Source: a virus (Duplodnaviria; Heunggongvirae; Uroviricota; Caudoviricetes). Taken from it: a DNA stretch of 35,809 nucleotides. The notes under the pieces are model-generated. The model was given only the letters and a program-made list of their open reading frames with translations, was not told the origin of the DNA and ran no database searches. The DNA is taken from positions 1-35,809 of the IMG/VR virus record IMGVR_UViG_2690316210_000007; one strand, written 5' to 3'. Shown here piece after piece: positions 14,877 to 35,809 of the stretch; within the stretch, counting starts at the first letter, position 1; each line of letters starts with the position of its first letter. The position numbers were made by a program, and so were the translations under genes.

Positions 14877-14912
14877 AGTCAGTGCTGACCATCAATATGA
14901 GGTTTTAACAAA

Positions 14913-15260: not shown

Positions 15261-15317
15261 CACGTTATCAGGCCACCATGGTGACCTGACTGATTTCTGA
15301 ATGAAAGGAACTGATTT

Positions 15318-16346
15318 ATGGGATTGTTTACGACCCGCCAGTTACTCGGTTATACCGAACAAAAAGTGAAATTCCGTGCGCTGTTTCTGGAGCTGTTTTT
15401 CCGCCGTACGGTGAATTTCCACACCGAAGAGGTGATGCTGGACAAAATTACCGGAAAAACGCCGGTGGCGGCCTATGTCTCCCCGATCGTTGAAGGAAAA
15501 GTGCTTCGCCATCGCGGTGGTGAAACCCGCGTGTTACGTCCGGGCTACGTCAAGCCGAAACACGAATTTAATTACCAGCAGGCGGTTGAGCGCCTTCCTG
15601 GTGAAGATCCGGCTCAGCTGAACGACCCGGCCTACCGTCGTCTGCGTATCATTACCGATAACCTCAAACAGGAAGAGCACGCCATTGTCCAGGTGGAAGA
15701 AATGCAGGCGGTGAATGCCGTGCTGTATGGCAAATACACCATGGAAGGGGATCAGTTTGATACTGTCGAGGTGGATTTCGGGCGCTCTGAAGGAAATAAC
15801 ATTGAGCAGGCTGACGGTAAAAAATGGTCTGAGCAGGACCGTGATACGTTTGATCCGACGCATGATATTGACCTCTACTGCGATCAGGCCAGCGGCCTTG
15901 TGAATATCGCCATTATGGACGGTACGGTCTGGCGTCTGCTGAATGGCTTTAAGCTGTTCCGCGAAAAACTGGATACCCGTCGCGGCTCAAATTCACAACT
16001 CGAAACGGCAGTGAAAGATCTGGGCGCAGTGGTGTCCTTCAAGGGGTATTACGGCGATCTGGCCATTGTGGTGGCGAAAACGTCTTATGTGGCAGAGGAC
16101 GGTACCGAAAAACGTTATCTGCCGGAGGGCATGCTGGTGTTGGGGAATACGGCGGCAGAGGGGATTCGTTGCTATGGTGCCATTAAGGATGCACAGGCGT
16201 TGTCTGAAGGAGTGGTGGCTTCTTCCCGTTACCCGAAACACTGGCTGACCGTGGGCGATCCGTCCTGTGAATTCACCATGACGCAGTCCGCTCCGCTGAT
16301 GGTGCTGCCGGATCCGGATGAGTTTGTGGTGGTACAGGTGAAATAA
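15318..16346 (+). CDS. E: Major capsid protein gpE
   Basis: 342 aa; ..VSPIVEGKVLRHRGGETRVLRPGYVKPKHE.., ..VEEMQAVNAVLYGKYTM.., ..LDTRRGSNSQLETAVKDLG.., ..MTQSAPLMVLPDPDEF.. versus recalled lambda E. Confidence 0.9.
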   Translation: MGLFTTRQLLGYTEQKVKFRALFLELFFRRTVNFHTEEVMLDKITGKTPVAAYVSPIVEGKVLRHRGGETRVLRPGYVKPKHEFNYQQAVERLPGEDPAQLNDPAYRRLRIITDNLKQEEHAIVQVEEMQAVNAVLYGKYTMEGDQFDTVEVDFGRSEGNNIEQADGKKWSEQDRDTFDPTHDIDLYCDQASGLVNIAIMDGTVWRLLNGFKLFREKLDTRRGSNSQLETAVKDLGAVVSFKGYYGDLAIVVAKTSYVAEDGTEKRYLPEGMLVLGNTAAEGIRCYGAIKDAQALSEGVVASSRYPKHWLTVGDPSCEFTMTQSAPLMVLPDPDEFVVVQVK

Positions 16347-16397
16347 TCCGTGAGCGGGGGCGAAATGCCCCCGTGTCTTTTTTCACAGGAGGCTGAG

Positions 16398-16781
16398 ATG
16401 GCAACAAAAGAAGAAAATCTGAATCGTCTTCGTCAACTGGCTGACCTGCTGGGGCGCGAGGCGGATATGTCGGGGAGTGCTGCGGATATTGCTCAACGTG
16501 TGTCTGAGTGGGAAGAGGAGCTTGCTGTTTCCCCGGAGGGCATTATGCACTCTGATGAGAGCGGGGCTGATCAAAATCACACAGACGATGGTGAGCAGTT
16601 GAACAACACGGATGCTCCGGATGATGTTAAAGCCGTCCGGGTACGGAAGTGCCTGCAAGTAATGGGGTATTGCCCGGAGACAGGTCGTCCCGTTGAGCTG
16701 GCGTTACGGGGTATGCGTGTTCTGGTGCCATCATCACTGGCAACGGCCATGATACAGCACGGAACGGCTGAATATGCGTGA
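16398..16781 (+). CDS. FI: DNA packaging / head assembly protein gpFI
   Basis: RBS aggagg then ATG 16398 (MATKEENLNRLRQLADLLG...); acidic central region; position between E and FII. The ORF-track start at 16350 is an upstream extension. Confidence 0.65.
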   Translation: MATKEENLNRLRQLADLLGREADMSGSAADIAQRVSEWEEELAVSPEGIMHSDESGADQNHTDDGEQLNNTDAPDDVKAVRVRKCLQVMGYCPETGRPVELALRGMRVLVPSSLATAMIQHGTAEYA

Positions 16782-17127
16782 TTTTCAGAATGCCTTTGAT
16801 GCTGCCCTCGCCGGGGTAGACAGTACGATCGTTGAAGTGATGGGGCTCTGTGCGCAGTTCACCTCGGGGGCACAGTGTGGCAGCGAAGTTCAGGGGGTTT
16901 TTGATGATCCGGAGTCGCTGGGGTTTGCCGGTGGCGGGGTCCGTATTGAAGGAAGCAGCCCGTCATTATTTGTGCGGACGGATACGGTTCGTGCCGTGCG
17001 GCGTGGTGACACGCTGACCATTAATGGTGAGATATTCTGGGTGGATCGTGTTTCTCCGGATGACGGGGGCAGCTGTTATCTCTGGCTCAACCGTGGTCAA
17101 CCACCCGCAGTTAACCGGCGACGATAA
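16774..17127 (+). CDS. FII: Head completion protein gpFII
   Basis: 117 aa; ..GVRIEGSSPSLFVRTDTVRAVRRGDTLTINGEIFWVDRVSPDDGGSCYLWLNRGQPPAVNRRR versus recalled lambda FII ..GVRVEGSSPSLFVRTDEVRQLRRGDTLTIGEENFWVDRVSPDDGGSCHLWLGRGVPPAVNRRR. Confidence 0.85.
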   Translation: MRDFQNAFDAALAGVDSTIVEVMGLCAQFTSGAQCGSEVQGVFDDPESLGFAGGGVRIEGSSPSLFVRTDTVRAVRRGDTLTINGEIFWVDRVSPDDGGSCYLWLNRGQPPAVNRRR

Positions 17128-17142
17128 ACGCAGGGTGAAATT

Positions 17143-17676
17143 ATGGCGATAAAAGGGCTTGATCAGGCGATTGACAATCTGAGCCGGGTTCGTAAAAACG
17201 CCATTCCGGCGGCTTCAGCAATGGCCATTAACCGCGTGGCCACAACGGCGATTAATCAGTCTTCATCACAGGTTGCCCGGGAGACAAAGGTTCGCCGGAA
17301 ACTGGTTAAGGAACGGTCCAGACTGAAACGGGCGACGGTCAGAAATCCGAATGCCAGAATTATCGTTAACCGCGGTGATCTCCCTGTGATTAAGCTGGGG
17401 ATCAGGATGCTGGGGCGTCGCCCGAACAGCATACTTAAAGCCGGTCAGCATCGGTATCAGCGGGCATTTATTCAGCGATTAAAAAATGGTCGCTGGCATG
17501 TCATGCAGCGTGTGGCCGGGAAAAACCGTTACCCCATTGATGTGGTGAAAATCCCGATGGCGGCCCCACTGAAACAGGCATTTGATGAGAATGTTGACCG
17601 TATCCGGCGTGAACGCCTGCCTAAAGAACTGGCATACGCGCTGAAACAACAACTGAGGATTGCAATAAAACGATGA
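17143..17676 (+). CDS. Z: Tail completion protein gpZ
   Basis: MAIKGLDQAIDNLSRV... and ..LKNGRWHVMQRVAGKNRYPIDVVKIPMA..RIRRERLPKEL.. versus recalled lambda Z. Confidence 0.8.
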   Translation: MAIKGLDQAIDNLSRVRKNAIPAASAMAINRVATTAINQSSSQVARETKVRRKLVKERSRLKRATVRNPNARIIVNRGDLPVIKLGIRMLGRRPNSILKAGQHRYQRAFIQRLKNGRWHVMQRVAGKNRYPIDVVKIPMAAPLKQAFDENVDRIRRERLPKELAYALKQQLRIAIKR

Positions 17677-18068
17677 AACACACTGACATTCGTGCCGCAG
17701 TGCTGGATGCACTCGAGCAGCATGAACACGGGGCGACGCTGTTTGATGGTCGCCCCGTTGTTTTTGACGAAGAGGATTTTCCTGCGATCGCGGTTTATCT
17801 GACGGATGCAGAGTATACCGGTGAAGAGCTGGATGCAGATACCTGGCGGGCCACGCTGCATATTGAGGTGTTTTTACCGGCACAGGTACCGGATTCAGAG
17901 CTTGATCAGTGGATGGAAAGCCGGATTTACCCGGCGATGACCGCGATCCCGGCACTGGCAGGACTGATTACCACGATGGTTACGCAGGGCTATGAGTATC
18001 GTCGTGATGACGATATGGCGTTATGGAGTTCTGCAGATCTGACTTATTCCATTACATACGAGATGTGA
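17673..18068 (+). CDS. U: Tail terminator protein gpU
   Basis: 131 aa, near-collinear with recalled lambda U ([48 protein letters not shown]...[25 protein letters not shown]...). Confidence 0.85.
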
Positions 18069-18075
18069 GGACGAT

Positions 18076-18828
18076 ATGGCAACACCAAATCCCCTTGAGC
18101 CGGTAAAAGGTGCCGGTACCACTCTGTGGGTTTACAACGGCAAGGGTGATGCTTATGCAAACCCGTTGTCAGACGATGACTGGCAGCGACTGGCTAAGGT
18201 GAAGGATCTGACGCCGGGCGAGATGACGGCAGAATCCTACGATGATAACTACCTGGATGATGAAGACGCGGACTGGACCGCGACCGGGCAGGGGCAGAAA
18301 TCTGCAGGTGATACCAGTTTTACGCTGGCCTGGAAACCGGGAGAGGAAGGCCAGAAAGGGCTTATAGGCTGGTTTGAAAGCGGCGATGTCCGGGCCTATA
18401 AAATCCGTTTTCCGAATGGCACGGTGGATGTGTTTCGTGGCTGGGTCAGCAGTATCGGTAAGGCCGTGACGGCGAAAGAAGTGATCACCCGCACGGTGAA
18501 AGTCACTAACGTGGGTAAACCTTCTGTAGCGGAAGAACGCAGCAAAATTACGCCGGTCAGTGCGATTAAGGTGACGCCGACATCCGGTACGGTGGCAAAA
18601 GGGAAAACAACCACCCTGACGGTTTCTTTTGAGCCGGAAAGTGCAACCGACAAGACGTTCAGAGCGGTTTCCGCCGATCCGTCGAAAGCCACCATTAGTG
18701 TGAAAGATATGACAATTACGGTAAACGGCGTGGCGACAGGTAAGGTGCAGATCCCTGTGGTGAGCGGAAATGGTCAGTTCGCCGCAGTGGCTGAAGTCAC
18801 CGTTACTGAAGCGGGCGCTGCAGGGTAA
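18076..18828 (+). CDS. V: Major tail protein gpV (with C-terminal Ig-like domain)
   Basis: 250 aa; ..[73 protein letters not shown].. versus recalled lambda V. Confidence 0.9.
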
Positions 18829-18841
18829 ACGGAGGTAATAC

Positions 18842-19273
18842 ATGTTTCTGAAAACAGAACAATTTGAATATAACGGTGTGTCTGTCACGCTTTCCGAATT
18901 GTCTGCGCTGCAGCGTATCGAGCATCTTGCCCTCCTGAAACGGCGTGCAGAACAGGCAGAATCCTGCGGCAACCTGCAGGTAAGCGTGGAAGATCTCGTC
19001 AGAACCGGCGCGTTTCTGGTGGCGATGTCCCTGTGGCATAACCATCCACAGAAAACGCAGTCACCGTCAATGAATGAGGCCGTGATGAAGATAGAGCAGG
19101 AAGTGCTCACCACCTGGCCTGCCGATGCCATTGCCCGGGCGGAAGACGTGGTGTTGTGCCTGTCCGGGATGATCGAAGCTGTTCGTCCGGATACTGATAT
19201 TACTGAAGTGGCGAAAAATAACACGCTGACTGATGATGATTTTTCTGCGGGAAAGTCTTCGACGGCGAGCTGA
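18842..19273 (+). CDS. G: Tail assembly chaperone gpG
   Basis: 143-aa ORF directly after V; it ends at the slippery heptamer G GGA AAG (19249-19255), in the zero frame. Confidence 0.8.
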   Translation: MFLKTEQFEYNGVSVTLSELSALQRIEHLALLKRRAEQAESCGNLQVSVEDLVRTGAFLVAMSLWHNHPQKTQSPSMNEAVMKIEQEVLTTWPADAIARAEDVVLCLSGMIEAVRPDTDITEVAKNNTLTDDDFSAGKSSTAS

Positions 19274-19713
19274 ACTTTGCCCTCAGACTGGCGCGTGAGA
19301 TGGGGAGACCCGACTGGCGCGCCATGCTTGCCGGGATGACATCCACCGAATATGCCGACTGGCACCGTTTTTACCGCACGCATTATTTTCAGGATACCCA
19401 GCTGGATATGCATTTTTCCGGGCTGACGTACGCTGTACTCAGCCTGTTTTTTTGCGATCCGGATATGCATCCCTCTGATTTCAGTCTGCTTGTCCCCCGG
19501 CATGAGGAAGAGCAGGTGGAGAGGCCGGATGAGGACAAAATGCTGATGCAGAAAGCGGCAGGACTTGCCGGAGGCGTCCGGTTCGGTGGGGACGGAGGGC
19601 GCGATATTTTATCGTCTGCGGATGTGGCGGATGTCATGGTGGATGATGCCGCATTAATGATGGCTTCAGCGGGGATTCCGGGAGGTGTGAGATATGTCCC
19701 AGCCGGTTGGTGA
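18842..19713 (+). CDS. T: gpG-T fusion produced by programmed -1 ribosomal frameshift (T segment about 19255-19713)
   Basis: Canonical lambda-type slippery site GGGAAAG at 19249-19255 in the correct codon phase; the downstream ORF (19300-19713) is open in the -1 frame and runs into the start of H. Confidence 0.7.
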
Positions 19714-22267
19714 TCTTGTTATTGACCTGAGTCTGGATGCTGTCCGTTTCGATGAGCAGATGAGCCGGGTAAGGCGTCATTTTTCAGGTCTGGATACCGA
19801 CGCCAGAAAAACCGCCAGTGCTGTTGAACAGGGCCTGAGCCGCCAGGCGCTGGCTGCACAAAAAGCCGGGATTTCCGTCGGGCAGTATAAAGCGGCCATG
19901 CGAACCCTGCCCGCACAGTTTACGGATATCGCCACGCAGCTTGCCGGTGGTCAGAATCCCTGGTTGATCCTGCTGCAACAGGGCGGTCAGGTGAAGGACT
20001 CCTTCGGCGGGATGATCCCCATGTTCAGGGGGCTTGCCGGTGCGATCACCCTGCCGATGGTCGGGGTCACCTCGCTGGCGGTGGCGACAGGTGCGCTGGC
20101 GTACGCCTGGTACCAGGGCGACGCCACGCTTTCAGAATTTAATAAAACGCTGGTCCTTTCCGGCAATCAGGCCGGACTGACTGCCGATCGTATGCTGACG
20201 CTCTCAAGAGCCGGGCAGGCAGCAGGGCTGACGTTTAACCAGGCGAGAGAGTCACTGGCAGCCCTGGTGAATGCCGGTGTGCGTGGTGGTGAACAGTTTG
20301 ATGCCATCAACCAGAGTGTCGCGCGTTTTGCGTCTGCATCCGGTGTGGAGGTGGATAAAGTCGCTGAAGCCTTCGGGAAGCTGACCACTGACCCGACGTC
20401 GGGACTGATGGCGATGGCGCGCCAGTTCCGTAACGTGACGGCAGAGCAGATTGCGTATGTTGCACAGCTGCAGCGTTCCGGAGACGAGGCCGGGGCATTG
20501 CAGGCGGCGAACGATATCGCCACGAAAGGCTTTGATGAGCAGACCCGTCGCCTGAAAGAAAACATGGGAACACTGGAGACCTGGGCGGATAAAACAGGGA
20601 AGGCATTCAAATCGATGTGGGATGCCATTCTGGATATCGGTCGTCCGGAATCCTCAGCGGATATGCTCGCCAGTGCGCAGAAGGCATTTGATGAGGCGGA
20701 TAAAAAATGGCAGTGGTACCAGAGCCGGAGCCAGCGCCGGGGAAAGACCTCCTCTTTTCGTGCGAACCTTCAGGGGGCATGGGATGACCGGGAAAATGCC
20801 CGTCTGGGTCTGGCAGCGGCCACGCTGCAGTCGGATATGGAAAAAGCCGGTGAACTGGCGGCAAGGGACAGGGCTGAGCGTGAGTCGTCACAGCTGAAGT
20901 ATACCGGAGAGGCGCAGAAGGCGTATGAGCGCCTGCAGACGCCGCTGGATAAATATACCGCCCGTCAGAAAGAGCTGAATAAGGCCCTGAAAGACGGAAA
21001 AATCCTGCAGGCGGATTACAACACGCTGATGGCGTCGGCAAAAAAGGATTATGAATCGACGCTGAAAAAGCCGTCAGGTGTGAAGGTGTCTGCCGGTGAG
21101 CGCCAGGAAGACCGGGCGCATGCAGCCCTGCTGGCGCTTGAAACCGAGCTCAGGACGCTGGAAAAACACAGCGGTGTGAATGAGAAAATCAGCCAGCAGC
21201 GCCGGGATTTATGGGAAGCGGAAAGTCAGTATGTGGTCCTGAAAGAGGCCGCCACGAAACGGCAGTTATCTGAGCAGGAAAAATCCCTGCTGGCTCATGA
21301 GAAAGAGACGCTGGAGTACAAACGCCAGCTGGCTGAGCTGGGAGACAAGATTGAACACCAGAAGCGGCTGAATGAGCTGGCACAGCAGGCGGCGCGGTTT
21401 GAACAGCAGCAAAGCGCGAAGCAGGCGGCAATCAGCGCAAAAGCCCGCGGCCTCACCGACCGTCAGGCGCAGCGGGAGTCGGAAGAGCAGCGCCTTCGTG
21501 AGGTGTACGGTGATAATCCGGCTGCGCTGGCGAAGGCCACATCGGCACTGAAGAACACCTGGTCTGCGGAGGAGCAGCTTCGTGGAAGCTGGATGGCCGG
21601 GATGAAGTCCGGCTGGAGTGAGTGGGAAGAGAGCGCCACGGACAGTATGTCACAGGTTAAAAGTGCAGCCACGCAGACCTTTGATGGTATTGCACAGAAT
21701 ATGGCGGCGATGCTGACCGGCAGTGAACAGAACTGGCGCAGCTTCACCCGCTCCGTGCTGTCCATGATGACAGAAATTCTGCTTAAGCAGGCAATGGTGG
21801 GGATTGTCGGGAGTATCGGCAGCGCCATTGGCGGGGCTGTTGGTGGCGGCGCATCCGCGTCAGGCGGTACAGCCATTCAGGCCGCTGCGGCGAAATTCCA
21901 TTTTGCAACCGGGGGATTTACGGGAACCGGCGGCAAATATGAGCCAGCGGGGATTGTTCACCGTGGTGAATTTGTCTTCACAAAGGAGGCAACCAGCCGG
22001 ATTGGCGTGGGGAATCTCTACCGGCTGATGCGCGGCTATGCCACCGGTGGTTATGTCGGTACACCGGGCAGTCTGGCTGACAGCCGGTCGCAGGCGTCCG
22101 GGACGTTTGAGCAGAATAACCATGTGGTGATTAACAACGACGGCACGAACGGGCAGATAGGTCCGGCTGCTCTGAAGGCGGTGTATGACATGGCCCGCAA
22201 GGGTGCCCGTGATGAAATTCAGACACAGATGCGTGATGGTGGCCTGTTCTCCGGAGGTGGACGATGA
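19694..22267 (+). CDS. H: Tail tape measure protein gpH
   Basis: 857 aa (lambda H is about 853), long alpha-helical/coiled-coil central region, Gly-rich C-terminal region, canonical position between G-T and M. Confidence 0.9.
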   Translation: MSQPVGDLVIDLSLDAVRFDEQMSRVRRHFSGLDTDARKTASAVEQGLSRQALAAQKAGISVGQYKAAMRTLPAQFTDIATQLAGGQNPWLILLQQGGQVKDSFGGMIPMFRGLAGAITLPMVGVTSLAVATGALAYAWYQGDATLSEFNKTLVLSGNQAGLTADRMLTLSRAGQAAGLTFNQARESLAALVNAGVRGGEQFDAINQSVARFASASGVEVDKVAEAFGKLTTDPTSGLMAMARQFRNVTAEQIAYVAQLQRSGDEAGALQAANDIATKGFDEQTRRLKENMGTLETWADKTGKAFKSMWDAILDIGRPESSADMLASAQKAFDEADKKWQWYQSRSQRRGKTSSFRANLQGAWDDRENARLGLAAATLQSDMEKAGELAARDRAERESSQLKYTGEAQKAYERLQTPLDKYTARQKELNKALKDGKILQADYNTLMASAKKDYESTLKKPSGVKVSAGERQEDRAHAALLALETELRTLEKHSGVNEKISQQRRDLWEAESQYVVLKEAATKRQLSEQEKSLLAHEKETLEYKRQLAELGDKIEHQKRLNELAQQAARFEQQQSAKQAAISAKARGLTDRQAQRESEEQRLREVYGDNPAALAKATSALKNTWSAEEQLRGSWMAGMKSGWSEWEESATDSMSQVKSAATQTFDGIAQNMAAMLTGSEQNWRSFTRSVLSMMTEILLKQAMVGIVGSIGSAIGGAVGGGASASGGTAIQAAAAKFHFATGGFTGTGGKYEPAGIVHRGEFVFTKEATSRIGVGNLYRLMRGYATGGYVGTPGSLADSRSQASGTFEQNNHVVINNDGTNGQIGPAALKAVYDMARKGARDEIQTQMRDGGLFSGGGR

Positions 22268-22593
22268 AAACCTTCCGCTGGAAAGTGAAACCCGGGATGG
22301 ATGTGACATCGGCTCCTTCCGTCAGGGAGGTGCGCTTTGGTGATGGCTATTCCCAGCGTGCGCCTGCCGGGCTGAACGCTGACCTGAAAACGTACAGCGT
22401 GACGCTGTCTGTCTCCCGTGAGGAGGCCACGGCGCTGGAGTCGTTTCTGGCTGAGCACGGGGGCTGGAAGGCCTTTCTGTGGACGCCGCCTTATGGTTAC
22501 AGGCAGATAAAGGTGACCTGCGCAAAATGGTCGTCGCAGGTCAGTATGTTGCGTGTTGGGTTCAGCGCAGAGTTTAAACAGGTGGTGAACTGA
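22264..22593 (+). CDS. M: Tail tip assembly protein gpM (copy 1)
   Basis: 109 aa, same length as lambda M; starts by ATGA overlap with the H stop. Confidence 0.85.
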   Translation: MKTFRWKVKPGMDVTSAPSVREVRFGDGYSQRAPAGLNADLKTYSVTLSVSREEATALESFLAEHGGWKAFLWTPPYGYRQIKVTCAKWSSQVSMLRVGFSAEFKQVVN

Positions 22594-23618
22594 TGCAGGA
22601 TATCCGGCAGGAAACACTGAATGAATGCACCCGTGCGGAGCAGTCGGCCAGCGTGGTGCTCTGGGAAATCGATCTGACAGAGGTCGGTGGAGAACGTTAT
22701 TTTTTCTGTAATGAGCAGAACGAAAAAGGTGAGCCGGTCACCTGGCAGGGGAGGCAGTATCAGGCGTATCCCATTCAGGGGAGCGGTTTTGAACTGAATG
22801 GCAAAGGCACCAGTACGCGGCCAACGCTGGCAGTCTCTAACCTGTACGGCATGGTCACCGGTATGGTGGAAGATATGCAGAGTCTGGTCGGCGGAACGGT
22901 GGTCCGGCGTAAGGTTTACGCCCGTTTTCTGGATGCGGTGAACTTCGTCAACGGAAACAGCGACGCCGATCCGGAACAGGAGGTGATCAGCCGCTGGCGC
23001 ATTGAGCAGTGCAGCGAACTGAGCGCGGTGAGTGCCTCTTTTGTACTGTCCACGCCGACGGAAACAGATGGCGCTGTTTTTCCGGGACGTATCATGCTGG
23101 CCAACACCTGCACCTGGACCTATCGCGGACTGCTTAAGCAGGCAATGGTGGGGATTGTCGGGAGTATCGGCAGCGCCATTGGCGGGGCTGTTGGTGGCGG
23201 CGCATCCGCGTCAGGTGGTACAGCCATTCAGGCCGCTGCGGCGAAATTCCATTTTGCAACCGGGGGATTTACGGGAACCGGCGGCAAATATGAGCCAGCG
23301 GGGATTGTTCACCGTGGTGAATTTGTCTTCACGAAGGAGGCAACCAGCCGGATTGGCGTGGGGAATCTCTACCGGCTGATGCGCGGCTATGCGGAAGGTG
23401 GTTATGTGGGCGGTGCCGGAAGTCCGGCGCAGATGCGGCGGGCTGAAGGCATTAATTTTAATCAGAACAATCACGTGGTGATTCAGAACGACGGTACGAA
23501 TGGTCTGCCAGGTCCACAGATGATGAAGGCCGTGTATGACATGGCCCGCAAGGGTGCCCGTGATGAAATTCAGACACAGATGCGTGATGGTGGCCTGTTC
23601 TCCGGAGGTGGACGATGA
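22593..23618 (+). CDS. Chimeric ORF: gpL N-terminal ~179 aa fused in frame to the C-terminal ~163 aa of gpH (duplication junction product)
   Basis: Residues 1-179 (MQDIRQETLNECTRAEQSASVVLWEIDL...LANTCTWTYRG) are lambda L-like. From LLKQAMVGIVGSIGSAIGG onward the sequence repeats the H C-terminus of 21778-22267, partly identical at nucleotide level. Confidence 0.7.
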   Translation: MQDIRQETLNECTRAEQSASVVLWEIDLTEVGGERYFFCNEQNEKGEPVTWQGRQYQAYPIQGSGFELNGKGTSTRPTLAVSNLYGMVTGMVEDMQSLVGGTVVRRKVYARFLDAVNFVNGNSDADPEQEVISRWRIEQCSELSAVSASFVLSTPTETDGAVFPGRIMLANTCTWTYRGLLKQAMVGIVGSIGSAIGGAVGGGASASGGTAIQAAAAKFHFATGGFTGTGGKYEPAGIVHRGEFVFTKEATSRIGVGNLYRLMRGYAEGGYVGGAGSPAQMRRAEGINFNQNNHVVIQNDGTNGLPGPQMMKAVYDMARKGARDEIQTQMRDGGLFSGGGR

Positions 23619-23944
23619 AAACCTTCCGCTGGAAAGTGAAACCCGGTATGGATGTGGCTTCGGCCCCTTCTGTAAGAAAGGTGCGCTTTGGTGATGGCTA
23701 TTCCCAGCGAGCGCCTGCCGGGCTGAATGCCAACCTGAAAACGTACAGCGTGACGCTTTCTGTCCCCCGTGAGGAGGCCATGGTACTGGAGTCGTTTCTG
23801 GAAGAGCACGGGGGCTGGAAAGCCTTTCTGTGGACGCCGCCTTATGAGTGGCGGCAGATAAAGGTGACCTGCGCAAAATGGTCGTCGCGGGTCAGTATGC
23901 TGCGTGTTGAGTTCAGCGCAGAGTTTGAACAGGTGGTGAACTGA
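23615..23944 (+). CDS. M: Tail tip assembly protein gpM (copy 2, on the duplicated segment)
   Basis: 109 aa, near-identical to copy 1 with scattered substitutions. Confidence 0.85.
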   Translation: MKTFRWKVKPGMDVASAPSVRKVRFGDGYSQRAPAGLNANLKTYSVTLSVPREEAMVLESFLEEHGGWKAFLWTPPYEWRQIKVTCAKWSSRVSMLRVEFSAEFEQVVN

Positions 23945-24813
23945 TGCAGGATATCCGGCAGGAAACACTGAATGAATGCACCCGTGCGGAGCAGTCGGCC
24001 AGCGTGGTGCTCTGGGAAATCGATCTGACAGAGGTCGGTGGAGAACGTTATTTTTTCTGTAATGAGCAGAACGAAAAAGGTGAGCCGGTCACCTGGCAGG
24101 GGCGACAGTATCAGCCGTATCCCATTCAGGGGAGTGGTTTTGAACTGAATGGCAAAGGCACCAGTACGCGCCCCACGCTGATGGTTTCTAACCTGTACGG
24201 TATGGTCACCGGGATGGCGGAAGATCTACAGAGTCTGGTCGGCGGAACGGTGGTCCGGCGTAAGGTTTACGCCCGTTTTCTGGATGCGGTGAACTTCGTC
24301 AACGGAAACAGTGACGCCGATCCGGAGCAGGAGGTGATCAGCCGCTGGCGCATTGAGCAGTGCAGCGAACTGAGCGCGGTGAGTGCCTCTTTTGTACTGT
24401 CCACGCCGACGGAAACAGATGGCGCTGTTTTTCCGGGACGTATCATGCTGGCCAACACCTGCACCTGGACCTATCGCGGCGATGAGTGCGGTTATCACGG
24501 TCCGGCGGTCGCGGATGAATATGACCAGCCAACGTCCGACATCACGAAGGATAAATGCAGCAAATGCCTGAGTGGCTGTAAGTTTCGAGATGGCGCTGTT
24601 TTTCCGGGGCGTATCATGCTGGCCAACACCTGCACCTGGACCTATCGCGGTGATGAGTGCGGTTATCACGGTCCGGCAGTCGCGGATGAATATGACCAGC
24701 CGACGTCCGATATCACGAAGGATAAATGCAGCAAATGCCTGAGCGGCTGTAAGTTTCGCAATAACGTCGGCAACTTTGGCGGCTTCCTTTCCATTAACAA
24801 ACTTTCGCAGTAA
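23944..24813 (+). CDS. L: Tail tip protein gpL carrying an in-frame 57-codon tandem duplication
   Basis: 289 aa versus 232 for lambda L. The block DGAVFPGRIMLANTCTWTYRGDECGYHGPAVADEYDQPTSDITKDKCSKCLSGCKFR occurs twice in tandem (24418-24588 and 24589-24759). Confidence 0.8.
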   Translation: MQDIRQETLNECTRAEQSASVVLWEIDLTEVGGERYFFCNEQNEKGEPVTWQGRQYQPYPIQGSGFELNGKGTSTRPTLMVSNLYGMVTGMAEDLQSLVGGTVVRRKVYARFLDAVNFVNGNSDADPEQEVISRWRIEQCSELSAVSASFVLSTPTETDGAVFPGRIMLANTCTWTYRGDECGYHGPAVADEYDQPTSDITKDKCSKCLSGCKFRDGAVFPGRIMLANTCTWTYRGDECGYHGPAVADEYDQPTSDITKDKCSKCLSGCKFRNNVGNFGGFLSINKLSQ

Positions 24814-24818
24814 ATCCC

Positions 24819-25562
24819 ATGACAGAGACAGAATCAGCGATTCTGGCGCACGCCCGGCGATGTGCTCCAGCGGAGTCGTGCGGCTTCGTGGTAAGAACGC
24901 CGGAGGGGGAAAGATATTTCCCCTGCGTGAATATCTCCGGTGAGCCGGAGGCGTATTTCCGTATGTCGCCGGAAGACTGGCTGCAGGCAGAGATGCAGGG
25001 TGAGATTGTGGCACTGGTCCACAGCCACCCCGGTGGTCTGCCCTGGCTGAGTGAGGCCGACCGGCGGCTGCAGGTGCAGAGTGATTTGCCGTGGTGGCTG
25101 GTCTGCCGGGGGGCGATTCACAAGTTCCGCTGTGTGCCGCATCTCACCGGGCGGCGCTTTGAGTACGGGGTGACGGACTGTTACACACTGTTCCGGGATG
25201 CTTACCATCTGGCGGGGATTGAGATGCCGGATTTTCATCGTGAGGATGACTGGTGGCGTCACGGTCAGAATCTCTATCTGGATAATCTGGAGGCCACAGG
25301 GCTGTATCAGGTGCCGTTGTCAGCGGCGCAGCCGGGCGATGTGCTGCTGTGCTGTTTTGGTTCATCGGTGCCGAATCATGCCGCCATTTACTGTGGTGAC
25401 GGCGAGCTGCTGCACCATATTCCTGAACAACTGAGCAAACGAGAGAGGTACACCGACAAATGGCAGCGACGCACACACTCCCTCTGGCGTCACCGGGCAT
25501 GGCACGCATCTGCCTTTACGGGGATTTGCAACGATTTGGCCGCCGCATCGACCTTCGTGTGA
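24819..25562 (+). CDS. K: Tail tip assembly protein gpK (MPN/JAB plus NlpC/P60-like)
   Basis: MTETESAILAHARRCAPAESCGFVVRTPEGERYF...HSHPGG...; near-identical to recalled lambda K. Confidence 0.85.
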   Translation: MTETESAILAHARRCAPAESCGFVVRTPEGERYFPCVNISGEPEAYFRMSPEDWLQAEMQGEIVALVHSHPGGLPWLSEADRRLQVQSDLPWWLVCRGAIHKFRCVPHLTGRRFEYGVTDCYTLFRDAYHLAGIEMPDFHREDDWWRHGQNLYLDNLEATGLYQVPLSAAQPGDVLLCCFGSSVPNHAAIYCGDGELLHHIPEQLSKRERYTDKWQRRTHSLWRHRAWHASAFTGICNDLAAASTFV

Positions 25563-26131
25563 AAACGGGTGCCGAAGCCATCCGGGCGATGGCCACACAG
25601 CTCCCTGCGTTTCGTCAGAAGCTGAGCGACGGCTGGTATCAGGTGCGTATTGCCGGGCAGGATGTTAGCACGTCCGGATTAACGGCGCAGTTACATGAGG
25701 CTCTGCCTGACGGCGCTGTGATTCATATTGTTCCCAGAGTCGCCGGGGCCAAGTCAGGTGGTGTATTCCAGATTGTCCTGGGAGCAGCCGCCATTGCCGG
25801 ATCATTCTTTACCGCCGGAGCCACCCTTGCAGCATGGGGGGCTGCCATTGGTGCCGGTGGTATGACCGGCATTCTGTTTTCTCTCGGTGCCAGTATGGTG
25901 CTCGGCGGTGTGGCTCAGATGCTGGCACCGAAAGCCAGAACTCCCCGCACACAGACAACGGATAACGGTAAGCAGAACACCTATTTCTCCTCACTGGATA
26001 ACATGGTTGCCCAGGGCAATGTTATGCCTGTTCTGTATGGTGAAATGCGCGTGGGGTCACGTGTGGTATCTCAGGAGATCAGCACGGCAGACGAAGGGGA
26101 CGGTGGTCAGGTTGTGGTGATTGGTCGCTGA
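25460..26131 (+). CDS. I: Tail tip assembly protein gpI
   Basis: 223 aa, MAATHTLPLASPGMARICLYGDLQRFGRRIDLRVKTGAEAIRA..., near-identical to recalled lambda I; overlaps the 3' end of K. Confidence 0.85.
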   Translation: MAATHTLPLASPGMARICLYGDLQRFGRRIDLRVKTGAEAIRAMATQLPAFRQKLSDGWYQVRIAGQDVSTSGLTAQLHEALPDGAVIHIVPRVAGAKSGGVFQIVLGAAAIAGSFFTAGATLAAWGAAIGAGGMTGILFSLGASMVLGGVAQMLAPKARTPRTQTTDNGKQNTYFSSLDNMVAQGNVMPVLYGEMRVGSRVVSQEISTADEGDGGQVVVIGR

Positions 26132-26191
26132 TGCAAAATGTTTTATGTGAAATCGCCTCCGGGCGGTTTTATCGTTTATGGAGCATGACGA

Positions 26192-26462
26192 ATGGGTAAA
26201 GGCAGCAGTAAGGGGCATACCCCGCGCGAAGCGAAGGACAACCTGAAGTCCACGCAGCTGCTGAGTGTGATCGATGCCATCAGCGAAGGGCCGGTTGAAG
26301 GTCCGGTGGACGGATTAAAAAGCGTGCTGCTGAACAGTACGCCGGTGCTGGACAGTGAGGGGAATACCAACATCTCCGGCGTCACGGTGGTGTTCCGGGC
26401 AGGTGAGCAGGAGCAGACACCGCCGGAGGGTTTTGAATCCTCCGGCTCCGAGACGGTGCTGA
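26192..26462 (+). pseudogene. J: gpJ (central tail fibre / host specificity) N-terminal fragment, truncated by IS insertion or deletion
   Basis: MGKGSSKGHTPREAKDNLKSTQLLSVIDAISEGPVEGPVDGLKSVLLNSTPVLDSEGNTNISGVTVVFRAGEQEQTPPEGFESSGSETVL matches the N-terminus of the full J at 33724. Homology stops at 26462, where IS3-family sequence begins. Confidence 0.8.
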
Positions 26463-27600
26463 TGAAAATCAACTTTCGATCAGTGAAGGCGCTTCCCGAT
26501 TATCTCTTCCTGAAGGCACTTTAGGACAATGGGTTACCGCCGCCAGAAAAGGGCTCGGTACTCCTGGTTCCCGCACGGTGGCTGAACTGGAATCTGAAAT
26601 TCTGCAACTGCGTAAGGCGTTAAATGAAGCTCGCCTTGAGCGAGATATATTAAAAAAAGCAACAGCGTATTTTGCACAGGAGTCGCTGAAAAATACGCGT
26701 TAATCGAACAATGGCGACAACAATTTCCCATTGAAGCGATGTGTCAGGTATTTGGTGTATCCAGGAGCGGTTATTACAACTGGGTACAGCATGAACCCTC
26801 AGACAGAAAACAAAGTGATGAGCGGCTAAAACTGGAGATTAAGGTGGCACATATCCGCACTCGCGAAACATATGGAACCCGGCGGCTCCAGACGGAGCTG
26901 GCAGAGAATGGCATCATCGTTGGTCGTGACCGACTGGCACGTCTTCGTAAGGAGCTAAGGCTACGCTGTAAGCAGAAACGCAAGTTCAGAGCGACTACGA
27001 ACTCGAACCACAATCTGCCAGTTGCGCCAAATCTGCTGAACCAGACGTTCGCTCCTACAGCACCAAATCAGGTCTGGGTGGCGGACCTGACGTATGTTGC
27101 CACACAGGAGGGATGGTTGTACCTCGCTGGCATCAAAGATGTTTATACGTGCGAAATTGTCGGCTACGCCATGGGAGAGCGCATGACAAAAGAGCTGACA
27201 GGTAAAGCCCTGTTTATGGCGCTCAGGAGCCAGCGCCCACCTGCCGGGCTAATCCACCACTCTGATCGAGGTTCACAGTACTGCGCATACGATTACCGGG
27301 TCATACAGGAGCAGTCTGGTCTGAAAACATCAATGTCGCGTAAAGGTAACTGTTACGACAACGCTCCGATGGAAAGCTTCTGGGGAACGCTGAAAAATGA
27401 GAGCCTGAGCCACTATCGTTTTAATAACCGGGATGAAGCCATCTCAGTAATACGGGAATACATTGAGATTTTCTACAATCGTCAGCGTCGTCACTCTCGT
27501 CTGGGGAATATCTCCCCGGCAGCCTTCAGGGAAAAATATCATCAGATGGCTGCTTAAAAAAAGAACAAATGGTAGTGTCCGCTATTGCCAGTACACCTCA
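26463..27600 (+). mobile_element. IS3-family insertion sequence, 5'-truncated (lacks left inverted repeat and the start of orfA)
   Basis: Partial orfA (..TVAELESEILQLRKALNEARLERDILKKATAYFAQESLKNTR*, stop 26701-26703); slippery A-run AAAAAAAG at 26652-26659; orfB in the -1 frame with DDE-type core (HHSDRGSQY, GNCYDNA). Right end TGAGGTGTACTGGCAATAGCGGACAC (reverse complement of ~27575-27600) resembles IS3-family terminal repeats. Confidence 0.8.
26739..27557 (+). CDS. IS3-family transposase orfB (DDE integrase core); normally expressed as an OrfAB frameshift fusion
   Basis: 272-aa ORF; ..QVWVADLTYV..GWLYLAGIKDVYTCEIVGYAMGERMT.., HHSDRGSQYCA, KGNCYDNAPMESFWGTLK, RRHSRLGNISPAAF are typical of IS3-family OrfB. 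Confidence 0.85.
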   Translation: MCQVFGVSRSGYYNWVQHEPSDRKQSDERLKLEIKVAHIRTRETYGTRRLQTELAENGIIVGRDRLARLRKELRLRCKQKRKFRATTNSNHNLPVAPNLLNQTFAPTAPNQVWVADLTYVATQEGWLYLAGIKDVYTCEIVGYAMGERMTKELTGKALFMALRSQRPPAGLIHHSDRGSQYCAYDYRVIQEQSGLKTSMSRKGNCYDNAPMESFWGTLKNESLSHYRFNNRDEAISVIREYIEIFYNRQRRHSRLGNISPAAFREKYHQMAA

Positions 27601-27652: not shown

Positions 27653-27672
27653 CAGGACGATACTCATCATTG

Positions 27673-27697
27673 CCCCGGTTATCCGGGGCTTTTTGCA
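27673..27697 (+). terminator. Intrinsic terminator-like hairpin between the V remnant and G copy 2
   Basis: ccccgg-ttat-ccgggg followed by CTTTTTG. Confidence 0.4.
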
Positions 27698-32380: not shown

Positions 32381-33124
32381 ATGACACAGACAGAATCAGC
32401 GATTCTGGCGCACGCCCGGCGATGTGCTCCAGCGGAGTCGTGTGGCTTCGTGGTGAGAACGCCGGAGGGAGACAGGTATCTTCCCAGCGAGAATATCTCC
32501 GGTGAGCCGGAGGAACGGTTCCGGATGGCTCCGGAGGACTGGCTGCGGGCACAAATGCAGGGTGAGATTGTGGCGCTGGTCCACAGTCATCCCGGTGGTC
32601 TGCCCTGGCTGAGTGAGGCTGACCGGCGGCTGCAGGTGCAGAGTGATTTGCCGTGGTGGCTGGTCTGCCGGGGGGCGATTCACAAGTTCCGCTGTGTGCC
32701 GCATCTCACCGGGCGGCGCTTTGAGCACGGGGTGACGGACTGTTACACGCTGTTCCGGGATGCTTATCATCTGGCAGGGATTGAGATGCCGGATTTTCAT
32801 CGCGGGGATGACTGGTGGCGTAACGGTCAGAATCTCTATCTTGACAATATGGAGGTGACGGGTTTTTACCGTGTCGCACTGACAGAGGCACAGCCGGGCG
32901 ATGTGCTGCTGTGCTGTTTTGGTTCATCGGTGCCGAATCATGCCGCCATTTACTGTGGTGACGGCGAGCTGCTGCACCATATTCCTGAACAACTGAGCAA
33001 ACGAGAGAGGTACACCGACAAATGGCAGCGACGCACACACTCCCTCTGGCGTCACCGGGCATGGCGCGCATCTGCCTTTACGGGGATTTACAACGATTTG
33101 GTCGCCGCATCGACCTTCGTGTGA
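32381..33124 (+). CDS. K: Tail tip assembly protein gpK (copy 2)
   Basis: MTQTESAILAHARRCAPAESCGFVVRTPEGDRY...HSHPGG...; the ORF-track start at 32117 is an upstream extension overlapping L. Confidence 0.85.
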   Translation: MTQTESAILAHARRCAPAESCGFVVRTPEGDRYLPSENISGEPEERFRMAPEDWLRAQMQGEIVALVHSHPGGLPWLSEADRRLQVQSDLPWWLVCRGAIHKFRCVPHLTGRRFEHGVTDCYTLFRDAYHLAGIEMPDFHRGDDWWRNGQNLYLDNMEVTGFYRVALTEAQPGDVLLCCFGSSVPNHAAIYCGDGELLHHIPEQLSKRERYTDKWQRRTHSLWRHRAWRASAFTGIYNDLVAASTFV

Positions 33125-33663
33125 AAACGGGGGCTGAAGCCATCCGGGCACTGGCCACACAGCTCCCGGCGTTTCGTCAGAAACTGAGTGACGGCTGGTA
33201 TCAGGTGCGCATTGCCGGGCGTGATGCAGGTGAAACCGAATTGTCTGCCCGTCTTAATGAGCCGCTGGCAAATGGTGCAGTGATCCACATAGTACCGCGT
33301 CTGGTGGGAGCTAAAAGTGGCGGTGTGTTTCAGGCGGTGCTGGGGGCGGCTGTTATGGCGGTTGCTATATGGATGCCGGGGGTAGGAATTATGGCGAGTA
33401 ATCTGCTGTTTTCTCTCGGTGCCAGTATGACGCTTGGCGGTGTTGCACAGATGCTGGCACCGAAAGCCAGAACTCCCCGTACACAGACAACGGATAACGG
33501 TAAGCAGAACACGTATTTCTCGTCACTGGATAACATGGTTGCCCAGGGCAATGTTCTGCCCGTTCTGTACGGTGAAATGCGCGTGGGGTCACGTGTGGTT
33601 TCTCAGGAGATCAGCACGGCAGACGAAGGGGATGGTGGTCAGGTTGTGGTGATTGGTCGCTGA
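33022..33663 (+). CDS. I: Tail tip assembly protein gpI (copy 2)
   Basis: 213 aa, MAATHTLPLASPGMARICLYGDLQRFGRRIDLRVKTGAEAIRALATQLPAFRQ... Confidence 0.85.
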   Translation: MAATHTLPLASPGMARICLYGDLQRFGRRIDLRVKTGAEAIRALATQLPAFRQKLSDGWYQVRIAGRDAGETELSARLNEPLANGAVIHIVPRLVGAKSGGVFQAVLGAAVMAVAIWMPGVGIMASNLLFSLGASMTLGGVAQMLAPKARTPRTQTTDNGKQNTYFSSLDNMVAQGNVLPVLYGEMRVGSRVVSQEISTADEGDGGQVVVIGR

Positions 33664-33723
33664 TGCAAAATGTTTTATGTGAAACCGCCTGCGGGCGGTT
33701 TTGTCGTTTATGGAGCGTGAGGA

Positions 33724-35809
33724 ATGGGTAAAGGCAGCAGTAAGGGGCATACCCCGCGCGAAGCGAAGGACAACCTGAAATCCACGCAGTTGCTGAGTGT
33801 GATTGATGCCATCAGCGAAGGGCCGGTTGACGGTCCGGTGGATGGATTAAAAAGCGTGCTGCTGAACGGTACGCCGGTCCTGGACAGCGAGGGGAAGACA
33901 AACTTTTCCGGTGTTACGGTGGTGTTCCGTGCAGGTGAGCAGGAGCAGACACCGCCGGAGGGTTTTGAATCCTCCGGCTCCGAGACGGTGCTGGGTACGG
34001 AAGTGAAATATGACACGCCGATCACCCGGACCATCACGTCGGCAAACATCGACCGTCTGCGCTTTACCTTCGGTGTGCAGGCACTGGTGGAAACCACCTC
34101 AAAGGGTGACCGGAATCCGTCGGAAGTCCGCCTGCTGGTTCAGATACAGCGTAACGGTGGCTGGGTGACGGAAAAAGACATCACCATTAAGGGCAAAACC
34201 ACTTCGCAGTATCTGGCCTCGGTGGTGGTGGGTAACCTGCCGCCGCGCCCGTTTAATATCCGGATGCGCAGGATGACACCGGACAGCACCACAGACCAGC
34301 TGCAGAACAAAACGCTCTGGTCGTCATACACCGAAATCATCGATGTGAAACAGTGCTACCCGAACACGGCGCTGGTCGGCGTGCAGGTGGATTCAGAGCA
34401 GTTCGGTAACCAGCAGGTGAGTCGCAATTATCATCTTCGCGGGCGCATTCTGCAGGTGCCGTCGAACTATAACCCGCAGACGCGGCAATACAGCGGTATC
34501 TGGGACGGAACGCTTAAGCCAGCATACAGCAACAACATGGCCTGGTGTCTGTGGGACATGCTCACTCATCCGCGCTACGGCATGGGGAAACGTCTTGGTG
34601 CGGCAGATGTGGACAAATGGGCGCTGTATGTCATCGGCCAGTACTGCGACCAGTCAGTGACGGACGGATTTGGCGGCACGGAGCCGCGCATCACCTGTAA
34701 CTCTTACCTGACCACACAGCGTAAGGCGTGGGATGTTCTCAGTGATTTCTGCTCGGCGATGCGCTGTATGCCGGTATGGAACGGACAGATGCTGACGTTC
34801 GTGCAGGACCGACCGTCGGATAAGGTGTGGGCCTATAACCGCAGTAATGTGGTGATGCCGGACGATGGCGCGCCGTTCCGCTACAGCTTCAGCGCCCTGA
34901 AGGACCGCCATAATGCCGTTGAGGTGAACTGGATTGACCCAGATAACGGCTGGGAGACGGCGACAGAGCTTGTGGAGGATACGCAGGCCATTGTCCGTTA
35001 CGGTCGTAACGTCACGAAGATGGATGCCTTTGGCTGTACCAGCCGGGGGCAGGCACACCGCGCCGGGCTGTGGCTGATTAAAACGGAACTGCTGGAAACG
35101 CAGACCGTGGACTTCAGCGTGGGCGCAGAAGGGCTTCGCCATGTACCGGGTGATGTCATTGAAATCTGCGATGATGATTATGCCGGTATCAGCACCGGTG
35201 GTCGCGTACTGGCGGTGAACAGCCAGACCCGGACGCTGACGCTCGACCGTGAAATCACGCTGCCGTCCTCCGGTACCACGCTGATAAGCCTGGTTGACGG
35301 AAGTGGCAATCCGGTCAGCGTGGAGGTCCAGTCCGTCACCGACGGCGTGAAGGTGAAAGTGAGCCGTGTTCCTGACGGCGTTGCAGAATACAGCGTGTGG
35401 GGGCTGAAGCTGCCGACGCTGCGCCAGCGTCTGTTCCGCTGCGTGAGTATCCGTGAGAACGACGACGGCACGTATGCCATCACCGCCGTGCAGCATGTGC
35501 CGGAAAAAGAGGCCATCGTGGATAACGGGGCACACTTTGACGGTGACCGGCGCGGCACGGTGAATGGTGTCACGCCGCCAGCGGTGCAGCATCTGACCGC
35601 CGAAGTCACCGCAGACAGCGGGGAATATCAGGTGCTGGCGCGCTGGGACACGCCGAAGGTGGTGAAGGGTGTGAGCTTCCTGCTTCGCCTGACCGTGGCA
35701 GCGGACGACGGCAGTGAGCGGCTGGTCAGCACAGCCAGGACGACGGAAACCACATACCGCTTCAGGCAGCTGGCGCTGGGGAACTACAGGCTGACAGTCC
35801 GGGCAGTAA
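33724..35809 (+). CDS. J: Central tail fibre / host specificity protein gpJ (copy 2), 5' portion; continues past the window end
   Basis: ATG 33724 (MGKGSSKGHTPREAKDNLKSTQLL...). The frame was spot-checked as open at 34081 and at the window end (..FRQLALGNYRLTVRAV); the ORF track omits it because it is unterminated in the window. Confidence 0.85.
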   Translation, partial: MGKGSSKGHTPREAKDNLKSTQLLSVIDAISEGPVDGPVDGLKSVLLNGTPVLDSEGKTNFSGVTVVFRAGEQEQTPPEGFESSGSETVLGTEVKYDTPITRTITSANIDRLRFTFGVQALVETTSKGDRNPSEVRLLVQIQRNGGWVTEKDITIKGKTTSQYLASVVVGNLPPRPFNIRMRRMTPDSTTDQLQNKTLWSSYTEIIDVKQCYPNTALVGVQVDSEQFGNQQVSRNYHLRGRILQVPSNYNPQTRQYSGIWDGTLKPAYSNNMAWCLWDMLTHPRYGMGKRLGAADVDKWALYVIGQYCDQSVTDGFGGTEPRITCNSYLTTQRKAWDVLSDFCSAMRCMPVWNGQMLTFVQDRPSDKVWAYNRSNVVMPDDGAPFRYSFSALKDRHNAVEVNWIDPDNGWETATELVEDTQAIVRYGRNVTKMDAFGCTSRGQAHRAGLWLIKTELLETQTVDFSVGAEGLRHVPGDVIEICDDDYAGISTGGRVLAVNSQTRTLTLDREITLPSSGTTLISLVDGSGNPVSVEVQSVTDGVKVKVSRVPDGVAEYSVWGLKLPTLRQRLFRCVSIRENDDGTYAITAVQHVPEKEAIVDNGAHFDGDRRGTVNGVTPPAVQHLTAEVTADSGEYQVLARWDTPKVVKGVSFLLRLTVAADDGSERLVSTARTTETTYRFRQLALGNYRLTVRAV

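Follow-up and report, generated by a model that had tools for sequence, protein, structure and literature searches.

A hairpin and T-tract between the tail genes I and J: a candidate intrinsic terminator inside the late operon of lambdoid phages

Phage lambda and its relatives carry tR'-like terminators, which are overridden by the antitermination protein Q. These terminators combine a GC stem-loop with an immediate U-tract and lie in the path of the Q-modified polymerase that leaves the late promoter. On Q-loaded polymerase, formation of terminator hairpins is blocked, and transcription is processive over tens of kilobases (PMC9388147). We describe an element of the same build much further into the operon, between the tail genes I and J. 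It is present twice in a 35,809-nucleotide (nt) DNA from a virus of the Caudoviricetes (IMG/VR record IMGVR_UViG_2690316210_000007, positions 1 to 35,809), referred to here as the window; this DNA comes from a lambdoid, Stx-phage-like prophage and covers its late region. The window also has a late leader region with 2 terminated leaders of the STnc100 type (2212-2889). In contrast to tR', the I-J element is located some 17 kb inside the operon, between 2 essential tail genes, and has a short GC stem of 5 bp and an interrupted U-tract. Judged by comparative sequence evidence, it is probably an intrinsic (Rho-independent) terminator inside the late operon, at the I/J boundary.

Other described elements resemble it in position or in company. 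GenBank records of the T1-like phages KP36 (NC_029099, 25461-25488) and AHS24 (KF771238, 17530-17556) place an annotated rho-independent terminator precisely at the junction of the I-like and J-like genes, with the same orientation and the same hairpin and T-run architecture; these sites were predicted by ARNold and by TransTermHP/WebGeSTer, and our custom detector recovers them. They differ from the window in that their sequence is unrelated and the hairpin lies 1-19 nt from the I stop and 40-63 nt from J; moreover, both phages are virulent and without known Q-type antitermination, so that J would be read by leakage. HK97/HK022-type phages reportedly carry moron terminators (Juhala et al. 2000), and in HK022-type phages a hairpin-T7 cassette comes after genes that have entered the I-J gap. 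In HK446, an equivalent cassette is annotated as the terminator of a moron before I. In contrast, the I-J gap of the window and of lambda has neither inserted gene nor promoter, only the hairpin. Finally, intercistronic stabilizers of the REP type likewise put a stable hairpin 3' of a cistron in the polycistronic messages of bacterial operons. They are dispersed repeat families with no conserved U-tract; in the I-J hairpin, by contrast, the T-tract is invariant, and the sequence does not belong to a dispersed repeat. We found no paper in the searchable literature that describes the lambda I-J hairpin, and a Term-seq paper on enterohaemorrhagic Escherichia coli (PMC7547250) does not discuss the tail genes.

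The 2 copies of the element share one layout, on the plus strand. In the first tail module, the 60-nt spacer (copy A, 26132..26191) lies between the I stop (26129-26131) and the start of a truncated J, here J' (26192). Its core hairpin (26153..26166) consists of the 5' arm tCGCC (26153-26157), the loop TCCG (26158-26161), and the 3' arm GGCGg (26162-26166); A/U and G-U pairs extend the helix to 26147-26172, and our detector places the hairpin at 26148-26171. By direct reading, the T-rich tract TTTTATCGTTTAT follows (26167..26179), and then the J' initiation region (26180..26194) with the Shine-Dalgarno sequence GGAG (26180-26183), an 8-nt spacer, and ATG (26192-26194). In the second module, the 60-nt spacer (copy B, 33664..33723) separates the I stop (33661-33663) from the J ATG at 33724. 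Its core hairpin (33685..33698) reads CCGCC (33685-33689), TGCG (loop, 33690-33693), and GGCGG (33694-33698), with A/U pairs lengthening the GC stem to 33681-33702; the T-rich tract TTTTGTCGTTTAT (33699..33711, direct reading) leads to the J initiation region (33712..33726), with GGAG at 33712-33715 and ATG at 33724-33726. Both spacers thus combine a 5-bp GC stem, a 4-nt loop, lengthening by A/U pairs, TTTT(A/G)TCGTTTAT, GGAG, 8 nt, and the J ATG. Copy B is identical to lambda 15445-15504 save for one base. A lambda imm434 record labels the homologous GGAG as a ribosome-binding site, and apart from this label neither that record nor the lambda RefSeq record annotates anything in the I-J gap.

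A sequence-only reading of the window had placed a GC hairpin and T-run before each J start, at 26146-26170 and 33682-33705. Direct reading agrees, and both coordinate ranges fall on the elements. When the 30-nt hairpins are folded, copy A gives -14.8 kcal/mol (z = -4.3) and copy B -15.2 kcal/mol (z = -3.8) relative to dinucleotide shuffles; on the minus strand, the fold of copy A is weak and no better than shuffles (z = +0.2) and that of copy B is moderate (z = -2.3). The copies differ at 5 of 60 spacer positions, only 2 of them within the hairpin: position 26153 is T in copy A and C in copy B, turning a C-G pair into U-G, and position 26159 in the loop is C in copy A and G in copy B. The same reading had held that the copies differ in the stem and both keep a stem. 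The stem is indeed kept, but the difference is a single C-to-T wobble change, and none of the 5 differing positions forms part of a compensatory double change, so the claim was overstated. In addition, the spacers are 92% identical and the flanking genes 95%; that is, the spacer is no better conserved than its flanks. For both of these reasons, the 2 window copies prove little by themselves, and the evidence beyond chance comes from wider comparisons.

Within lambda-type phages, we compared diversity across 60 distinct haplotypes, with codon sites of I and J as benchmarks. The 55 fourfold-degenerate sites of I and J, the neutral benchmark, have a diversity of 0.111, and codon positions 1 and 2, the constrained benchmark, 0.015. 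The 10 stem bases fall at 0.013, about 8-fold below synonymous sites, and a wobble pair is retained at both variable columns. The 7-base A-side extension is invariant (diversity 0). The loop varies freely (0.160), as does the segment from Shine-Dalgarno to ATG at a neutral-like rate (0.134). The T-tract as a whole has a diversity of 0.064: its 9 T columns are all invariant, and the neighboring purine positions vary. In 28 distinct lambda-type spacers, pairing is complete (100%) both in the core helix and in its A/U extension, all changes being of the wobble kind, and the hairpin is found in every full-length lambda-type spacer sampled. This distribution shows strong purifying selection on the stem and the Ts, with the loop left free, in spacers that carry no insert.

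Beyond lambda-type phages, the element recurs at the same boundary. We collected 335 loci with I homologues from IMG/VR, GTDB genomes, and GenBank phages, which yielded 178 distinct I-J junctions. The custom detector calls a single hairpin of -7 kcal/mol or lower followed by at least 5 T in 8 nt, and was checked against shuffles and coding DNA. It finds a plus-strand hairpin and T-run in 106 of the 107 distinct spacers of 40-120 nt, and minus-strand sites in 23 of the same 107. The detector is permissive, in that it also fires in 590 of 2140 dinucleotide shuffles (28%) and, in coding DNA, 2.5 times per kb. With a cutoff of -10 kcal/mol, the density is 12.9 sites per kb in the spacers versus 1.28 per kb in flanking coding DNA. 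Conservation in other lambda-like phages was the test on which the sequence-only reading had staked its claim; once run, it shows the structure kept in lambda-type phages and recurring in HK022-type, Stx-type, and T1-like phages. The hairpins of these last 3 types do not belong to one sequence family, so what recurs is the position and not the sequence.

HK022-type prophages, found in many Enterobacterales, have an I protein 27-36% identical and a non-homologous spacer. Their stems are GCCACC/GGTGGC, ACCGCC/GGCGGT, ACCACC/GGTGGT, ACCTCC/GGAGGT, or CCCGC/GCGGG, followed by an almost invariant TTTTTTTATGGGCGCAAT-ATG. In loci L128-L167, this appears before J as an almost invariant cassette of GC hairpin, T7, ATGGG(C/G)G, about 4 nt, and ATG. 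The same cassette also stands 5' of gene I where a moron has been inserted before I, in HK446 and in an Erwinia rhapontici prophage (L087 557-591; L163 about 1440-1480), and may be a reusable junction module. Stx-type spacers have the stem ACAGGCACCC/GGGTGCCTGT and a run of T5-6, with a compensatory variant ACAGGCATCC/GGATGCCTGT and a G-U intermediate. The virulent T1-like phages use about 20 different strong stems, 1-19 nt past the I stop. From hairpin to J start, the distance is 40-104 nt in the Stx-type and T1-like phages and 16-23 nt in the lambda type and HK022 type.

Covariation was assessed in a fixed-register alignment of 33 distinct tetraloop hairpins. In it, 98.3% of cells are paired, a percentage biased by the fact that the detector picked these hairpins, and 3 pairs show double changes (25 cells). 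The changes run 21:10 for A-U/G-C and 19:13:1 for G-C/A-U/U-A, and the covariation score was matched by 0 of 500 shuffles. We used this fixed register in place of RNAalifold on a MAFFT alignment of the HK022-type spacers, which missed the obvious hairpin, probably because 3 sequences were out of structural register. Two decayed copies of the hairpin were seen, one of them in a Shigella module with a disrupted I gene.

Some observations on these loci stand apart from the hairpin. In the Stx-type spacers at L083 1282-1480, L084 1249-1450, and L086 1282-1520, a minus-strand terminator (AAAAAATCCCGCAG...CTGCGGG) lies right after the I stop and a plus-strand terminator ends the spacer before J; between them runs a conserved non-coding stretch of about 170 nt with no Rfam match, which may be a small RNA or the remnant of a gene. 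Many GTDB species-representative assemblies from unrelated organisms (Collinsella, Neobacillus, Pseudoxanthomonas, Bradyrhizobium, Streptomyces, and others; loci L089-L103, L115, L116, L118, and L120) include contigs of low coverage with an I gene 98% identical to copy A, which is itself about 98% identical to lambda I. These look like lambda DNA contamination of sequencing libraries.

The I-J gap also accommodates additional DNA. Spacers reach 344-822 nt in 13 of 38 distinct HK022-type junctions, and all Stx-type spacers measure 235-903 nt. In the HK022-type and the Citrobacter lambda-type spacers, the extra DNA always lies between the I stop and the hairpin, and despite it the hairpin stays 16-23 nt from the J ATG. 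The spacer of Citrobacter locus L111 is homologous to lambda from the hairpin onward and unrelated upstream of it. Judged by eye from translations, the HK022-type inserts contain small open reading frames (ORFs) and a 242-residue ORF resembling a lipoprotein, those of Citrobacter and of some Stx-type spacers include a minus-strand ORF resembling periplasmic Cu,Zn superoxide dismutase (SodC), and those of T1-like phages sometimes contain ORFs resembling HNH endonucleases (SodC-like or HNH-like inserts at L112 2149-2862; L176, L219, and L243 2182-3084; L298 2104-2666; L333 2083-2708). The gap is thus an insertion hot spot, and the hairpin would double as a terminator of the inserted genes. This agrees with the definition of morons as having their own promoter and terminator (PMC3594210). 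The relatives with spacers of 344-903 nt have an extra gene in the gap with the hairpin 3' of it. The window spacers are 60 nt long without a gene, and a promoter scan was empty in 26132-26191 and 33664-33723.

Hairpins of this kind are found throughout the lambda late operon. Every lambda late-operon gap of at least 40 nt holds a plus-strand GC hairpin with a T-run (D|E, E|FI, I|J, J|lom, and lom|stf); the 148-nt gap between L and K in RefSeq was counted as coding, given an open K reading frame from 14133 and the long form of the K ORF in the window, and no hairpin of -10 kcal/mol or lower was reported there. The hairpins at D|E, E|FI, J|lom, and lom|stf fill their gaps in the same manner with different sequences, and those at J|lom and lom|stf flank lom, a known lysogen-expressed moron. 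In the window, a strong plus-strand hairpin follows the stop of E, the major capsid gene (16354..16374; GCGGGGGC-GAAAT-GCCCCCGT, then GTCTTTTTTC); its lambda E|FI counterpart is ATGGCCC-TTCG-GGGCCAT followed by TGTTTCTCTG. Another strong one lies on the plus strand directly 5' of the second-module G (27672..27689; GCCCCGG-TTAT-CCGGGGC, then TTTTTG), and a weak plus-strand hairpin with a T-run follows D (15268-15289). Because such sister elements fill every sizeable late-operon gap, the I-J hairpin is one member of a class and is not special to J; the tie to the long J gene that had been suggested from the sequence does not hold.

The D|E spacer of lambda (L335 6080-6134) has a feature of its own: GGCCGCC-TGTG-CGGC is followed by T7, ACGGGA, a second T7, and the E ATG, so that 2 U7 runs lie 6 nt apart. 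This arrangement resembles the hypothetical hairpin-spacer-U-tract terminators that have been suggested as possibly acting on Q-loaded polymerase (PMC9388147). Speculatively, some late-operon hairpins of Q-dependent phages may act in another way when the polymerase carries Q.

We now consider how the I-J element fits a terminator. A terminator stem has about 5-14 bp and a loop of 3-8 nt; here CCGCC/GGCGG encloses a 4-nt loop and reaches 9-11 bp with A-U and G-U pairs. The U-tract starts at the base after the stem and, interrupted as it is, has 6 U in its first 9 positions. The orientation follows transcription (106 of 107 spacers on the plus strand versus 23 on the minus strand), and the low stem diversity, the double changes in the 33 hairpins, and the Stx-type compensatory pair show that the structure is maintained. 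Three features point to an action on RNA polymerase: the T-tract does not vary, the sites are biased to one strand, and what recurs is a T-run after any kind of GC stem. They are harder to reconcile with a binding site for a sequence-specific protein or with a hairpin that only confers stability. Thus, of the 2 roles that the sequence-only reading had offered, the attenuator or terminator half is favored by the invariant T-tract and the strand bias, and pure mRNA stability is disfavored.

From this pattern, we infer actual termination, its efficiency, and its physiological purpose as follows. As RNA polymerase leaves I in the rightward direction, the GC stem (CCGCC/GGCGG plus GAAA/UUUU) would fold while UUUU(G/A)UCGUUU sits in the RNA-DNA hybrid, and an ordinary elongation complex would be released at the U-tract with some probability. 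During lytic growth, polymerase from the late promoter would carry Q and terminator hairpins would be blocked at the RNA exit channel, allowing read-through into J. Since Q blocks terminator hairpins, the element would stop only unmodified polymerase. On balance, J and the distal genes would need antiterminated transcription for their expression and would be shielded from other transcription arising upstream, including that of morons. The transcribed hairpin may have a secondary role, blocking 3'-to-5' exonucleases and protecting the upstream tail-gene message. In T1-like phages, which are without Q, J would be expressed by leakage only, with the hairpin serving as a step-down attenuator: no sigma-70-like promoter was found between hairpin and J in these phages, so J would be transcribed by read-through and the terminator would have to be leaky. 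Two simpler proposals were dropped in the course of this analysis, namely that J in T1-like phages is transcribed from a promoter of its own past the hairpin, where there is no usable sigma-70 match, and that the hairpin exists only where there is Q antitermination, given that virulent T1-like phages have it too. A broader proposal is that the hairpin is a tuned, ancient, and leaky control point, in temperate lambdoid and virulent T1-like phages, whose strength sets the transcription of J and of the distal fibre and accessory genes in proportion to the remaining tail module, with the gap as a preferred docking site where accessory genes find a terminator already in place; this we regard as a long shot.

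Several points weigh against a terminator. In the lambda type, the U-tract is interrupted (UUUUGUCGUUU) and the GC stem has just 5 bp, and therefore termination may be weak. A simple consensus terminator scan of the window called neither I-J hairpin, probably because the A-run pairs with the T-run and the extended stem absorbs the first Ts. We know of no promoter upstream in lambda against which insulation would be needed. The choice of hairpins by the detector biases the pairing figure in the covariation set. Five lineages (KLB29, jat, ZQG1, Mcat22, and a Plesiomonas prophage) have no hairpin, their I-J junctions overlapping or measuring 4-12 nt, and therefore the element is not obligatory for expression across I-J. 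Lastly, in the lambda and HK022 types, the J start follows the hairpin at a short and constant distance, and the two remain together upon insertion, which would also fit a role in J translation or at the 5' end of the J message.

Among the alternatives, we consider possible, although clearly less probable than a terminator, that the hairpin serves only mRNA stability or processing: there would be no useful termination, and an exonuclease barrier would keep the upstream tail-gene message from sharing in decay of the J message. A stable hairpin does sit at the 3' end of the I cistron, only 1-19 nt after the I stop in T1-like phages, and hairpins of this sort also come after E in the window and after D and E, both highly expressed, in lambda. 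Terminator hairpins are reported to raise the stability of upstream mRNA (PMC11696848). An exonuclease barrier has no need of a U-tract, yet a T-run is present in every independent lineage and 9 Ts are invariant in the lambda type; the strand bias (106 versus 23 of 107) fits stability and termination alike and cannot tell the two apart. Terminator hairpins usually both terminate and stabilize. A stabilizing role is compatible with termination and probably additional to it. Control of J translation is less likely still. In this case, the hairpin or U-tract would hide the Shine-Dalgarno sequence, insulate the ribosome-binding site from upstream structure, or offer a U-rich landing site for ribosomal protein S1. 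Folding of the 64-nt spacer gives a long helix, with GGAG paired in its outer part (z = -2.9 and -2.6), and RNAalifold adds an outer helix too. This would agree with the fixed 16-23 nt from hairpin to J ATG in the lambda and HK022 types, where the hairpin stays with J upon insertion, and with the almost invariant segment before the ATG in the HK022 type. The outer helix, however, is without covariation, 2 of its pairs are disrupted, each in 6 of the 28 distinct spacers, and its register differs between the single-sequence and the alignment fold; we therefore rejected a helix sequestering the Shine-Dalgarno sequence as a conserved feature. In addition, the hairpin lies 40-104 nt from the J start in Stx-type and T1-like phages, and the segment from Shine-Dalgarno to ATG evolves in a neutral-like manner (diversity 0.134).

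The element might instead be an evolutionary leftover, such as the terminator of a former moron or a recombination-hot-spot junction that has no function in insert-free spacers. The I|J gap is an insertion hot spot in HK022-type, Stx-type, and T1-like phages, the Citrobacter L111 spacer matches lambda only from the hairpin onward, and morons bring their own promoter and terminator (PMC3594210). Nevertheless, insert-free lambda-type spacers are under strong purifying selection on the stem and the Ts and not on the loop, the hairpin has decayed in a module with a broken I gene, and virulent T1-like phages retain it without lysogeny, which together leave a leftover quite improbable. As for a meaningless inverted repeat arisen by chance, the permissive detector and the origin of the 2 window copies in paralogous DNA of 92-95% identity would allow for one; it is effectively refuted by the contrast of 106 of 107 spacers with 28% of shuffles, by the diversity pattern over stem, loop, and T-tract, and by independent sequences at the same boundary. 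An intrinsic terminator remains the reading that we favor.

Other folds and classes were considered and set aside. An attenuator with a leader peptide or alternative structures was rejected, as the sole extra pairing is the outer helix, with its broken pairs and without covariation, and the ORFs that cross the spacer are not conserved. Small ORFs do cross both spacers and the hairpin (window 26136-26200 and 33668-33732): one runs from the ATG of a TGATG overlapping the I stop to a TAA inside J codons 2-3, and a second from the ATG at 26139 to the TGA at 26187-26189. These were dismissed as genes bridging the spacer, given that their amino acid (aa) sequences are not conserved, 1-nt indels shift their frames, and they are absent from other clades including the HK022 type; the chance of a 60-nt open frame is about 38% per frame. 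No Rfam family matches at gathering thresholds at the spacers, in the window or in 5 related loci, and the best hits in 26050-26300 are noise (SAM-SAH at 15 bits versus a cutoff of 40; STnc130 at 14.6 versus 55). A dispersed repeat of the REP/BIME type was likewise set aside: a repeat search of the window finds the spacers only within the duplicated tail modules, and the U-tract is conserved.

The surroundings of the element are those of a rearranged late region. The window starts with a DNA methylase gene, 2 late-leader RNAs of the STnc100 type (RF02076; 2212-2402 and 2680-2889), and 2 transfer RNA (tRNA) genes (1884-1956 and 2060-2133); the segment 1884-2889 is a late-promoter leader region typical of Stx-type lambdoid phages. 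Between it and a nanS-p-like esterase gene (3112-4968) there are no toxin genes. Lysis genes follow, and then nu1 through J' (9130-26524), with 52-98% aa identity to phage lambda. Gene I of copy A, encoding the tail tip assembly protein (25460..26131, plus strand), is 97.8% identical in aa sequence to lambda I, and the J' remnant (26192..26524, plus strand) retains only J residues 1-90 before an IS3-family element interrupts it. The transposase ORF of this element (26739-27557, within the segment 26462-27700) matches rve and HTH_21, and the corresponding region of the best-matching E. coli genome has an annotated IS600. A second, more diverged tail module, G-T-H-M-L-K-I-J, extends from 27693 to the end of the window. 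Its gene I (copy B, 33022..33663, plus strand) has 81.6% aa identity to lambda I, and its J, with 97% aa identity to lambda J over residues 1-695, runs off the window. In the first module, a tandem repeat at 21779-24480 (period 1351 bp, 93-95% identity) duplicates the 3' end of H, M, and the 5' end of L, and yields an ORF (22593-23618) in which L residues 1-179 are fused to H residues 692-853. Either genuine recombination or an assembly artefact could have produced it. L also holds a 171-bp internal repeat (24418-24817).

As a kind of element, the I-J hairpin is textbook, the equivalent site is already annotated in T1-like phages, and established concepts are unchanged by it. What is mildly new is that a terminator position would be kept at I|J across unrelated spacers, in temperate and virulent phages, with a link to the insertion of accessory genes. 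If our reading is true, the hairpin would merit annotation as a terminator or stem_loop in lambdoid records. The late operon of lambda, commonly depicted as a single unbroken unit of 26 kb, would then hold selectively maintained internal terminators, and the terminator before J would be common in position, not in sequence, to HK022-type, Stx-type, and T1-like phages. This would bear on tail-fibre gene dosage and on why accessory genes such as sodC land there in the prophages of pathogens. It would also bear on engineered lambda and T1-like phages with a swapped J, where losing or duplicating the spacer may alter J expression.

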